Sequence record: PP449093.1
Origin: Escherichia coli phage phiS
Reading direction: 5' to 3' (one strand)
DNA: 64,000 bases
Part shown: positions 17,745-20,851 of the stretch, piece by piece
Layout of the letters: every line of letters starts with the position of its first letter
Position numbering within the stretch: the first letter of the stretch is position 1
Position numbers and translations under genes: made by a program
The notes under the pieces: model-generated
What the model was told of the DNA's origin: nothing
The model's database searches: none
The model's input: only the letters and a program-made list of their open reading frames with translations

Positions 17745-19119
17745 TCATTGTTAGACCTTCACGCGGCCTATATTCTTCGATGCCGTTTGCACCGTCATAT
17801 ATTACCACGGGCGCGTATTCTTCCCCCAATTCATCTAATTCCTTTCGGAATATTTCGGAGGCGATCCGCATTTCGTCTTTTCCTGCATATTCGGCGAATT
17901 TTTCTTGAGTTGTCAACCAACCAAATATTACCAGACTCATGACCAAATCATCGTGAAAACCTTCTTCTGCCGCCCAGCTTACCCCCTTCTCGGAGAATGT
18001 GCGCAACTCCTGAATAGTTCCTTTATGATTAATGATCAGCTTATCTTTTTCTATTAAGTCTTTTAGTGCCGAACATCCCATTGCTTTAGATCTTTTGGAT
18101 TGTTTCATCCCTAGATCTATGAATGAGTCGCAAATAATATTATCATATTCAAGATCCATCGCAAGAGACTTAGCAATAGATACACCCGTACTATTTAGCT
18201 CGATATAAACCGGACATTCGTTATACATCATAAGATATTTAAAGACGATATCCGGTAATATTAAATGTGACGTAGTATTGCTGTGATATACCGCGACCTG
18301 TTTATAAGGAAATTCAGTAATATCAATGATTTGCATTGCGTGATAGTCTTGTCCTCGACCTTCTGAGCAATCTAGTGTAGCAACATATTTTCTACCTTCT
18401 TTCGGTTGTTCAAATTGATAAAAACCATTATCATTAACAACGTCAATAAATGATAATCTTGATAGTGTGGTTGCCCTGATCAGAGTACCGGAACTCCCGA
18501 AAAATTCAGCGTTATGTTCCTGTAAGAATTGCTCAAGACTAGATCCGGCGATCGCCTGAGATGACCACTCATAACCATCATCGAATATATCAGCTTTATT
18601 GTAAAGACGTTCTTTAACAGAATGCCAAACCGCCTCATAAGGTACATAACCGCTTTTACCATCAATGGCAGATTGCCAGATATCATAAAAGTGATTAAGC
18701 CCGTTCGGAGTCGTTGTCATGATCATTTTAGATTCACGACCAGAAGAAATTACTGGTTGGATTGCAAGGAAACAATCGGTCCAGTTTTGAATAAATGCGC
18801 AGTTATGGGATTCTACATTGTTTGTAGTGTAATGGTTGCCATCTGCAACGTTAGTTAAATCGTATAAAAAGTCTTCACCAACATAATCTTTACTAATGAC
18901 AGTAAGGCCGGAAGACGTAACGAATCCAGCCTCGATATCATCGGCTTCTATGAAAAAGCCGTCACTTGATTTTAATTTATGGTTTTCTGAACATTCAAGA
19001 TATGATCCGTCGCTAAATGTTAGTTTCCAGATCATACCAAATGTTTCTTTTATGCCATCAAAATCTTTAAAACCGTTTTCGGTGAGAACTTCGAACCCGT
19101 CAAGATTCCAAAAGTTCAT
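17740..19119 (-). CDS. 17: large terminase gp17 C-terminal fragment: split-intein C part (106 aa) + C-extein (nuclease domain)
   Basis: Own ATG with GAGGA RBS; first 106 aa carry Hint blocks B, F, G (SENH, VESHN); then CAFIQNW and about 353 aa collinear with T4 gp17 C-terminal half. Confidence 0.85.
18802..19119 (-). mobile_element. split intein C-terminal fragment (IntC) in gene 17
   Basis: Residues 1-106 of ORF 17740..19119; ends HN followed by +1 Cys. Confidence 0.75.
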
Positions 19120-20851
19120 TAATATAATCCTCGTGAATATATTCGAAAGTGTATCCGTTTTCTTTACACCATTCTATAGCGGCTTGTTCTTTCGCCATTG
19201 TTTTTGGATCTTCAACAAGTCGCTTAGGCTTAACTTCATAAACGATCTTATTATCGTGATCTACGAAGTCCGTAATATAAACGTGATTCTTTCCTTTAAA
19301 TTTGTATGTAACACGAAGCGTTTCGTATTCAATATTAACGCCTTTAGCCTTCATGTCTTTATAGAAAGCAAGTTCCCAAGAGCTACGGAAGCTATGACCA
19401 TCATACTTAATGCGGGAATGATTAAGTCGATTAGTCGTCTTAGGCGTAAATTCACCATTCAGAATACGCTGTTTAACTTGCTCTGACTGTTTAGCCCTTT
19501 GTTCTGGTGTTTTCTTACCGTTGCACTTTCTGCGCATTTCATCGCCGTTTTCGACGTATAGACGTTTCATTGCCTCGCCTTGTTTGGCGTAACCACATTT
19601 ACGGCAAAGATAACCCTCATTTTTAACAGCATACATCCCGCATTCTGGACACTCAAAACGCCGGAAGATAACCATTTTCGATGATATTTTCCCTAAGCGT
19701 CCAGGCAATTTTTCTGTGCAGTAGTTATGACATTTATCCTTATAGTATGGACCATTCTTGCTTAATTCCACACGGCAACCACATCCTTTTGTAGAGCAAA
19801 CAGGACGCTCCAGAATATCATTTGTCACACATGCGATAAACTCTCTCATGGATTCGGTTTTATGAAAATGCGTGTCGAAAAACTCTTTGTATTCTTCCAA
19901 CATATCCATAGTTACGCCAGGAACCCAACCGCGAGTCAAGTTTGGATTTTTTGCGTGTGGCAGTAATAACTCTTTAATTTTATTCAACTTTTGCTGAATA
20001 GCCATCATCTTAACCTCTAACATGGTGTATTCTTTAACTTCACCTGTTAGCTTATCACGCAATGTAACTTTGGTCAAGCCGCTAACGCATTCGTCAATGT
20101 AGATAAATGAGAACGAGTTACCGCGCACGGCATCAGGAGACGACGCATAAGCACCAATACTTGAACCGTTTTCAAGAACAATTGATTTCTTGTTCCATTC
20201 AACAATACCTGGCTGTAAGAAGTCTGGTAATAGTTCAATTGCTTGTTTAGTACGTTCTAGAACCTCAACTGCCATTGATCCTTTGTGTGCCAGTATACCT
20301 ACCGCTTTGTCTTTATTAAAACAAACGTAGTGAGCAAGGAATATTGCTACAGCGGTAGTTTTCCCTAGCTGACGTGATAGTTTATGTGCGCTCATGCGGT
20401 TTTCATGCATGATCTTAAGCATATCTTTCTGATAATCACGCAATTGTACTTTGATTGTACCGTAGTCGATGTGTGTAATTGCGCAATAGGTTTCTGCGAA
20501 ATATACAATATCTTTACGGCATCGTTTCCACTCTGCGATCATTTCAGGGGTATACTGAGTTTTAATATTCGCCCTTCGCAAGTTCTTTAACCGCATATAC
20601 CGCGTGCGAATATTGTCACTATCTTTAAAGAACTTATAATTTGTTGGATCAGTGCTTTGCATCCTTATTTTCTGCGGTCTGTTTAATTTCAGATAGTCAG
20701 AAAACTTTTTAGGATACCATTTATCATCATGCTTTGATAAAATCCATTCAATACCATTTGAATCAATTTTAGTTTCTAGTGTAGACGGATGAGCTAAATA
20801 TAGCGGGTGTTCATCCGTCGCCATTGCGTTAATCCCTTCAATCACGCTCAT
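19100..20851 (-). CDS. 17: large terminase gp17 N-terminal fragment: ATPase N-extein (254 aa) + intein N part + in-frame zinc-ribbon/PD-(D/E)xK nuclease region
   Basis: Walker A SRQLGKTT, Walker [10 protein letters not shown], then Cys-initiated block A-like [12 protein letters not shown]; remaining 300 aa contain CxxC pairs and a gp4-like nuclease domain. Confidence 0.85.
20012..20089 (-). mobile_element. split intein N-terminal fragment (IntN, about 26 aa) in gene 17
   Basis: [26 protein letters not shown] directly after the catalytic Glu; boundary at the 3' side is approximate. Confidence 0.65.

Follow-up and report, generated by a model that had tools for sequence, protein, structure and literature searches.

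The closest described counterparts of the element considered here are the fractured genes, in which the halves of a split intein flank an endonuclease gene carried on the same strand (Dassa et al. 2009, PMC2677866). In the published cases, the N-terminal intein fragment (IntN) ends with a stop codon that is followed by 27-51 nt of non-coding sequence, often with a hairpin, the 3' end of the endonuclease gene overlaps the open reading frame (ORF) of the C-terminal fragment (IntC) by 6-69 bp, and the endonucleases are GIY-YIG or Vsr-like (PMC2677866). In the model of the same study, inteins are invaded by endonuclease genes that are initially free-standing and that later, on losing their flanks, become captured in frame; the study also included a metagenomic gp17 locus from Lake Gatun, split at an unusual N-proximal point and with a 122-aa IntC. 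The large terminase subunit (TerL, gp17) also hosts the AceL-TerL and GOS-TerL split inteins, whose IntN are 25 aa and 37 aa long, respectively, the latter being trimmable to 27, while Cat is a consensus of split inteins of these two types (PMC11766414). The present analysis concerns the gp17 locus of Escherichia coli phage phiS (PP449093.1), within a stretch of 64,000 nt that is referred to as the window. There, IntN has neither its own stop codon nor a spacer, and reads in frame into a complete homing endonuclease (HE).

The window derives from an RB49-like Krischvirus, i.e., a T4-type coliphage, and the interruption is readily delimited by alignment with the uninterrupted gp17 of RB49 (607 aa). 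The two proteins are identical up to ..FSFIYIDE(254) and diverge from Cys255; gp17 is found again, from CAFIQNW onward, in a second ORF of 459 aa, following 106 unrelated residues that end with ..NNVESHN. The first ORF has a single stop codon, at its end, with none between Cys255 and residue 583, and Pfam recognizes in it both Terminase_6N (residues 159-256) and Tn7_TnsA-like_N (residues 506-574). This 583-codon ORF is likewise open in phages kaaroe, JK32, SAP, TB34, and G2494 and, up to the end of the record, in GoldenSnicker, hence in seven Krischvirus genomes including the window. In the endonuclease part, the codons that differ between the window and kaaroe comprise 27 synonymous and 6 non-synonymous changes. 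Since the ORF is intact across genomes and the changes are mostly synonymous, the read-through is real and under purifying selection. The in-frame fusion, which recurs in lineages with as little as about 40% identity, is, on this comparison of sequences, neither a matter of chance nor a sequencing error. An earlier note on this DNA had read IntN as continuing in frame for about 300 codons, and had named an overlooked stop codon after IntN as grounds for abandoning that view; the continuation stands, and no such stop is present in the same ORF of the other Krischvirus genomes. Positions of all features are collected in Table 1, in which, as below, handles beginning with L and P denote related loci and proteins.

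Table 1. Features of the interrupted gp17 locus and of other genes discussed in the text (positions are those of the window; residue numbers of catalytic residues are those of the 583-codon ORF).
Feature	Position	Strand	Basis or remark
N-fragment ORF: TerL N-extein, IntN and homing endonuclease in one frame	19100..20851	minus	583 codons + TGA
TerL (gp17) N-extein, residues 1-254, Walker B end ..IYIDE	20090..20851	minus	alignment with uninterrupted RB49 gp17
IntN core, Cys255-Lys281, 27 aa	20009..20089	minus	conserved with IntN of SG1, Thanatos-2, L015, L018, L024, others
GAGG, Shine-Dalgarno-like, in IntN codons Leu-Glu-Val	20014..20017	minus	5 nt before ATG ATG
ATG ATG (Met282-Met283), in frame with IntN (IntN residues 28-29)	20003..20008	minus	ancestral endonuclease start
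Complete homing-endonuclease module, 302 aa	19103..20008	minus	phrog_15427; homolog clusters; AlphaFold2
N-terminal helical domain, HE residues 1-62, NPNLTRG motif	19823..20008	minus	AlphaFold2; conserved in free-standing relatives
Zinc ribbon 1 (C71, C76/C78, C93, C97)	19715..19801	minus	Cys pairs kept in homologs
Zinc ribbon 2 (C120-x2-C123 ... C135-x2-C138)	19583..19657	minus	CPxCG...CxxCG conserved; weak Pfam Zn_ribbon_3 match
TnsA/gp4-like PD-(D/E)xK nuclease domain	19103..19426	minus	
Candidate catalytic residue E493	19373-19375		
Candidate catalytic residue D528	19268-19270		
Candidate catalytic residue E539	19235-19237		
Candidate catalytic residue K541	19229-19231		
GAGG in HE C-terminal codons	19129..19132	minus	9 nt before IntC ATG
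IntC ORF start (ATG)	19117..19119	minus	
Overlap of HE ORF end and IntC ORF start, different frames	19100..19119	minus	20 nt
Second ORF, IntC and C-extein	17740..19119	minus	459 aa
IntC, 106 aa (MNFWNLDG...NNVESHN), block B SENH and terminal His-Asn	18802..19119	minus	phmmer to CatC
TerL C-extein, Cys+1 AFIQNW... to end plus stop	17740..18801	minus	Pfam Terminase_6N (C-terminal part), Terminase_6C
SegE-like GIY-YIG endonuclease, 194 aa, I-TevI-type DNA-binding tail	22952..23536	minus	Pfam E 8e-7
gp4 head-completion nuclease ortholog, 161 aa, outside the element	41922..42407	plus	PF08722 E 2e-20; phrog_218 E 7e-59

Judged by its sequence, the gp17 intein is an atypical split intein of the AceL-TerL/GOS-TerL/Cat family, inserted at the Walker-B Glu254|Cys255 position. 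IntC matches 'Consensus engineered intein CatC' (PDB 6dsl_B) over 107 residues in phmmer (E 7.3e-14), and the catalytic residues of an intein are present, namely Cys1 (C255), the block-B SENH of IntC, the terminal His-Asn of ..ESHN, and Cys+1. IntN gave no match in the PDB, the fragment being too short to score, and neither the endonuclease nor the intein has a model in NCBIfam. The intein shares with AceL-TerL, GOS-TerL, and Cat its host protein, the small size of IntN (25-37 aa), an IntC of about 104-106 aa, and the two cysteines Cys1 and Cys+1; in contrast to these inteins, studied as isolated metagenome fragments, it resides in coliphages that can be cultivated, with a 302-aa endonuclease attached to the C-terminal end of its IntN. 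That the GOS-TerL IntN can be trimmed to 27 residues implies that additional C-terminal residues on IntN are tolerated, and sequence conservation of IntN reaches about 34 aa. Contiguous alleles devoid of HE (L025 and L028) place the split and the insertion in the loop that immediately follows the helix of IntN (..IGDFYNEI-DKQ-YSVLT..), between blocks N1 and B. From the viability of the carriers and the essential nature of TerL, we infer that the two gp17 halves undergo trans-splicing.

The module fused to IntN is a nuclease of a large mobile family. Among PHROGs, its best match is phrog_15427, 'endonuclease' (E 9.4e-49), versus an E-value of 6.8e-10 for phrog_218, the gp4 family; in Pfam, it matches PF08722 (Tn7_TnsA-like_N) with 35.5 bits for a cut-off of 26.5 (E 1.6e-8) and PF05367 (Phage_endo_I) with 29.6 bits for a cut-off of 29.1. 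A word-indexed protein search with the 302-aa module retrieved one match (P0001), and an exhaustive phmmer search was needed to recover its homologs, amounting to 1571 cluster representatives at E<=1e-3. In HE numbering, the invariant alignment columns include R208, S209, E229, D247, E258, and K273, and E212 and K260 are nearly invariant; the motif thus reads RSSWE ... D ... ExK, with E212, D247, E258, and K260 of HE corresponding to E493, D528, E539, and K541 of the ORF. AlphaFold2 modeling of HE (87 homologs; mean predicted confidence, pLDDT, 87.7) gives an N-terminal helical domain (helices 2-18, 34-47, and 54-62, pLDDT about 90 or more), after which come the zinc ribbons, a pair of long helices, and a nuclease core of alpha/beta type. 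As modeled, the module is therefore a TnsA-like PD-(D/E)xK nuclease, with a restriction-endonuclease (REase) fold bearing the E ... D ... ExK arrangement. The CxxC pairs and the E ... D ... ExK residues that the earlier note had picked out by eye are thereby confirmed, the former as the Cys clusters C71/C76/C78, C93/C97, C120/C123, and C135/C138, which make up two Cys4 ribbons, and the profile searches that it had called for do find the nuclease fold family. A Vsr-like (EDxHD) homing endonuclease was also considered and ruled out, Pfam giving no Vsr match and the active site being D...ExK with Lys; unlike I-Bth0305I, the module is devoid of the Vsr Asp/His/Asp catalytic set. In a second AlphaFold2 model, covering residues 241-583, IntN folds as a beta-hairpin plus a helix that continues into the first HE helix (H37-59, pLDDT about 90); IntN and HE would then be joined without a linker.

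The C-terminal domain of the module had been aligned by eye with the gp4 ortholog of the window, and this resemblance was borne out: BLASTP gives an E-value of 3e-4 with 23% identity over 124 aa, hhalign of gp4 against the HE family a probability of 96.7% (E 3.4e-10), and the BFVD match of the HE nuclease is a 'Head completion nuclease' (E 1.5e-5). Together with the Pfam and PHROG matches, and with the common motifs G-x-(F/Y)-x-P ... (F/Y)RSSWE ... D ... ExKP, these data indicate that the HE nuclease domain is a distant homolog of gp4, at 23-27% identity, a distance from which the direction of descent is not readable. The protein gp4 has itself been described, in a passage citing Benler et al. 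(2020), as a TnsA-like nuclease of the REase fold. The module shares fold and motif set with T4 gp4 and with the N-terminal domain of Tn7 TnsA (PF08722). However, T4 gp4 is a single-domain core morphogenesis protein of 150-160 aa, to which the module adds zinc ribbons and NUMOD3-like helices, and the module, unlike gp4, behaves as a mobile element with presence/absence polymorphism. When best profile, single-domain size of about 150 aa, and gp53/gp4/gp2 neighborhood are considered together, the ORF at 41922..42407 belongs to the gp4 family and the module does not. This ORF lies between 39.5 and 43.2 kb along with gp5, a 184-aa ORF at the gene-53 position, and a 273-aa ORF at the gene-2 position. 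Of note, it is 99% identical to its counterpart in vB_EcoM_G2494 only, and 80-90% identical to those of 57 other records; on these identities, the gp4 core gene is unusually diverged here from that of other Krischvirus.

At the 5' junction, the endonuclease begins at an ATG pair preceded by a GAGG. This ATG pair can be regarded as the ancestral HE start because the free-standing homologs P0004, P0005, P0006, and P0010 begin there, and in L015, L018, and SG1, relatives with a free-standing HE, a GAGG likewise precedes the start. The suggestion that the nuclease could also start on its own from this internal ATG pair is thus plausible, free-standing relatives beginning at exactly that position. 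Both the Shine-Dalgarno-like motif and the ATG are kept in the window, and the ATG in the fused forms L014 and L020. An RNA structure is predicted at 19970..20095 (minus strand), in which the GAGG and the spacer pair with the 5' part of the IntN coding sequence (minimum free energy -29.5 kcal/mol, z -3.3); a conserved regulatory RNA element covering the GAGG was nonetheless rejected, as this pairing is not conserved in other lineages. No match to the TATAAATA late promoter was found upstream of the internal start, the nearest being at 17737..17744, before gp18; a scan for sigma-70-like promoters remained at background level and no terminators were found. At the 3' junction, the 20-nt overlap between HE and IntC, which falls within the 6-69 bp published for fractured genes, has the form of a stop/start overlap that suggests translational coupling of the IntC ORF. 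A further GAGG precedes the IntC start, inside the conserved C-terminal 'HEDY' codons of HE, so that the endonuclease gene supplies start signals of the downstream terminase fragment.

As anticipated in the earlier note, this arrangement differs from that of published fractured genes, in which IntN has its stop codon and spacer of 27-51 nt. The overlapping 3' end and the phage origin are common features, and the divergence lies at the 5' junction and in the nature of the enzyme, which is TnsA/gp4-like with a classical D...ExK site instead of GIY-YIG or Vsr-like. As far as the sequence tells, this arrangement amounts to half of what Dassa et al. (2009) modeled as step IIIa, i.e., loss of an endonuclease flank, a step that was hypothetical and unobserved in that study. 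Canonical bifunctional inteins, with in-frame LAGLIDADG or HNH domains, offer a second comparison: as in these, the endonuclease would be co-translated and stay on the intein after splicing; in contrast, only the 5' junction is in frame here, the 3' junction being a stop/start overlap in another frame. In addition, the endonuclease of canonical inteins lies between blocks B and F, whereas that of the window lies between N1 and block B and is of the PD-(D/E)xK type.

Relatives of the locus display the same intein site in a series of other states. In its simplest form, it is a contiguous mini-intein without HE (L025, L028) or a split intein without HE (L027). In other split forms, the same HE family is free-standing and starts out of frame at IntN residues 27-29, the IntN stop lying 14 nt on (L015/P0004, L018/P0005, and L019/P0006): in the first two, the HE starts with ATG and overlaps IntN by 14 nt, and the third uses a TTG at the same place. 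The HE can also follow the IntN stop (L024, L026), or be replaced in the same loop by HNH-like or GIY-YIG-like genes, as recognized from sequence motifs only (L029, L036, L031), such that at least three nuclease families occupy this loop of the TerL intein; L031 also appears doubly split. A three-ORF form, with HE shortened to 199 aa, is found in the Tequatrovirus/Tegunavirus phages SG1, HY03, phiR1-RT, and TG1 and in Pseudomonas phage PspYZU05; its IntN ends with a tail, ALAITQK, that corresponds to the first HE residues of the fused forms. In L013/P0010, HE is in frame with IntN and separated from it by one stop codon (..FLTM-TAA-EFDR-ATG..), while its sister L014 has GAA in place of this TAA and is fused. 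Fused in frame are the window and the six other Krischvirus, metagenomic P0002/P0003, the metagenomic phages L014/P0008 and L020/P0009, and Shewanella phage Thanatos-2, whose HE is 39.6% identical to that of the window. In a neighbor-joining tree of the endonucleases, computed without support values, fused forms fall in at least three clades. The mirror fusion exists as well: in P0021/L103, a separate IntN ORF is followed by a single 848-aa ORF that encodes HE, IntC, and C-extein. A TerL intein carrying this endonuclease in fully contiguous form was looked for among the 150 best representatives and in the phage records, and none was found.

Several of these loci have additional features. In L103 (metagenome contig SRR1027651_8860429, 1903..5047), the ORF preceding the mirror fusion encodes TerL-N and a 32-aa IntN and ends with a stop codon. 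The terminase of L014 (ENA ERZ27248689 k141_67156, 220..4244) is in three pieces: ORF1 encodes TerL-N and a short Walker-A IntN with a T5orf172 nuclease fused in frame, ORF2 an IntC, the middle part of TerL, and an IntN with the PD-(D/E)xK endonuclease fused in frame, and ORF3 an IntC and TerL-C. A different, contiguous intein of 331 aa with a LAGLIDADG-like domain occupies the gp17 Walker-A site (GK|ALDV...THN|TTA) in Krischvirus ELT3 (L004 1045..2037), AV108, and FL15; its first residue is Ala rather than Cys/Ser, and P0002 has this intein and the fused split intein together. Beyond gp17, an IntN of canonical length continues in frame into a member of the same HE family in the UvsW-type helicases P0107 and P0054 (L101, L102), where the split intein breaks UvsW at the DExH/Walker-B Glu|Cys, P0054 having an additional contiguous intein at Walker A; in another UvsW-type helicase (L005), the HE is free-standing.

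The distribution of the insert is that of a mobile element. Among 66 phage records matched by megablast with 17700..20900, only 5 (kaaroe, vB_Eco_SAP, TB34, G2494, and JK32) cover it in full, at 95-97% identity, while most others, including RB49 and Phi1, cover 60% of it in two pieces and lack about 1.29 kb; tblastn found the endonuclease in 6 Krischvirus records. Only a minority of Krischvirus records therefore carry the insert. The exteins of kaaroe, which carries the 1.29-kb insert, differ from RB49 at only 3 + 4 nt. When the gp17 exteins (1824 nt) of 6 intein-plus and 7 intein-minus Krischvirus were compared, the sole fixed difference was at nt 759 (window 20093, minus strand), the third base of Asp253, located 3 nt from the insertion point: GAC in 6/6 intein-plus and GAT in 7/7 intein-minus phages. 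Such a pattern would be expected if intein and endonuclease home as a unit into the Walker-B site, with either a very short co-conversion tract or an immunizing change. The ORFs adjoining the locus are gp18, gp16, gp15, and gp14. Next to gene 14, the SegE-like ORF is a further free-standing homing-endonuclease gene of the same structural-gene block.

Taken together, 19103..20008 is probably a normally free-standing HE gene lodged in the split-intein loop, and the locus a fractured gene that has lost the 5' flank of its HE, i.e., a half-completed and reversible step of capture. With the HE start in frame with IntN and no stop before it, ribosomes initiating at gp17 would make a 583-aa TerL(1-254)-IntN-HE protein, whose IntN would pair with IntC; protein trans-splicing would then rebuild the 607-aa TerL and free IntN-HE bound to IntC, a complex that would have the topology of an ordinary intein bearing an endonuclease and nicked on the C-terminal side of that domain. 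Because no other ORF codes for the N-terminal half of TerL, and because the carriers are phage isolates for which laboratory hosts are named, the 583-aa fusion is likely to be splicing-competent. Initiation at the internal AUG (Met282/283), the ancestral start preceded by GAGG, probably yields the endonuclease on its own as well; the enzyme would cut intein-less gp17 alleles in co-infections, allowing the whole 1.29-kb unit to home.

Other origins for the fusion were weighed against this scenario. The earlier note viewed the module as recruited from a phage structural-gene paralog and then fused to the intein half, which in practice designates the phage's own gp4 gene. Both proteins do belong to PF08722 and share motifs as well as the hhalign and BFVD matches given above, but recruitment from gp4 is very improbable: identity is only 23-27%, the module is far closer to the mobile nuclease family of 1571 clusters (phrog_15427, 9e-49, versus phrog_218, 7e-10), its DNA-binding domains are missing from gp4, homologs are carried by unrelated phages and by fractured genes other than gp17 (UvsW), and gp4 is a conserved core gene, with 2577 phage records annotated as head completion. 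An artefact or decay, whether a missed stop, a frameshift error, or a dead pseudogene, is effectively refuted by an ORF that is open in seven independently sequenced genomes plus metagenomes, by the predominance of synonymous substitutions between the window and kaaroe, by the conservation of motif residues (D247 and E258 invariant, E212 and K260 nearly so), and by a confident fold prediction; all that could be said for it is the inconsistency of annotators, the gp17 fragments being labeled 'hypothetical protein', 'terminase large subunit' twice, or 'misc_feature similar to terminase' in MN850574, OZ034687, MK327935, and OR896832, four records in which no intein or endonuclease is annotated at this locus.

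A contiguous intein with an in-frame endonuclease could, alternatively, have broken later at the HE/IntC boundary, without a free-standing gene ever having invaded. Split inteins are sometimes traced to stop codons that appeared within the endonuclease region (2025 survey of intein-endonuclease architectures), and the ALAITQK tail of the SG1-type IntN, being the HE start of fused forms, suggests that the fused state came earlier in that clade. This course of events is nevertheless unlikely, given that neither the 150 best representatives nor the phage records include a contiguous HE-bearing TerL intein, that free-standing members of this nuclease family are found in many settings, that at least three nuclease families share the loop, that HE-less alleles exist in both contiguous and split form, and that the 3' end of HE overlaps IntC out of frame, with its own Shine-Dalgarno motif, as in invading free-standing genes. 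A more serious contender, to which we attach appreciable but less than even credence, is that the fusion is a neutral accident, in other words a fractured gene minus a stop codon, in which only the 302-aa protein initiated at the internal AUG would work as an endonuclease, and the HE tail carried by the N-precursor would be a burden without a role, yet tolerated. L013 and L014 indeed differ by a single-nucleotide TAA/GAA toggle, the Shine-Dalgarno motif and ATG are kept in the window and the ATG in L014 and L020, fusions are a minority of loci, and fused and unfused forms are mixed in the neighbor-joining tree. However, the N-extein is present only in the fused ORF, so that the precursor must at least be splicing-competent; Thanatos-2 has no ATG at the ancestral start; and fusions are found both in gp17 and in UvsW, as well as with another type of nuclease, the T5orf172 of L014 ORF1. 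The neutral accident and the half-completed capture differ only on the activity of the fused endonuclease itself.

Several observations weigh against the half-completed capture. Thanatos-2 has TTG, not ATG, at the homologous start, and independent initiation is thus not assured everywhere; no comparable RNA structure is consistently found in the equivalent regions of eight other loci. Fused forms represent only about 7 of the 150 best cluster representatives, and 0/11 of the intein-bearing IMG/VR loci with a readable junction. The junction is essentially a single point, and the fused state may persist by descent, being tolerated rather than selected. Finally, we infer, from the data above, each of translation of the fusion, its splicing competence, and its nuclease activity.

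A bolder proposal, possible but rather doubtful, is that IntN-HE fusions and their mirror HE-IntC counterparts are repeatedly arising, functional intermediates in the capture of free-standing HE genes as intein domains, in which HE would be obligatorily co-translated with the N-terminal half of TerL and freed or activated only by trans-splicing. If this is true, the amount of nuclease and the time of its appearance would depend on terminase maturation.

The atypical TerL split intein, fractured genes, and gp4 as a TnsA-like nuclease are already known. A 2025 survey of architectures lists in-frame LAGLIDADG/HNH domains, split inteins with Vsr-like enzymes, antisense genes, and out-of-frame EndoVII-like genes, and read-through from IntN into an endonuclease is absent from it. 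In the searchable literature, whose coverage is incomplete, neither this read-through, nor the mirror HE-IntC form, nor the present PD-(D/E)xK family as an intein-associated endonuclease was found.

The TnsA/gp4-like PD-(D/E)xK family is thereby added to the endonucleases associated with inteins, and natural atypical split inteins from mesophilic coliphages may be of interest to protein engineers. The 5'-fused form is present in plaque-forming E. coli phages related to RB49, a genetically tractable system in which splicing of an IntN with a 35-kDa passenger, activity of the fused nuclease, and its effect on homing and fitness become testable questions. More generally, it has long been asked how inteins came by their endonuclease domains, and a half-captured state had previously not been shown; here, this state can be placed at one insertion site where the others are all gathered: contiguous mini-intein, split without endonuclease, in frame behind one stop, 5'-fused, and 3'-fused.

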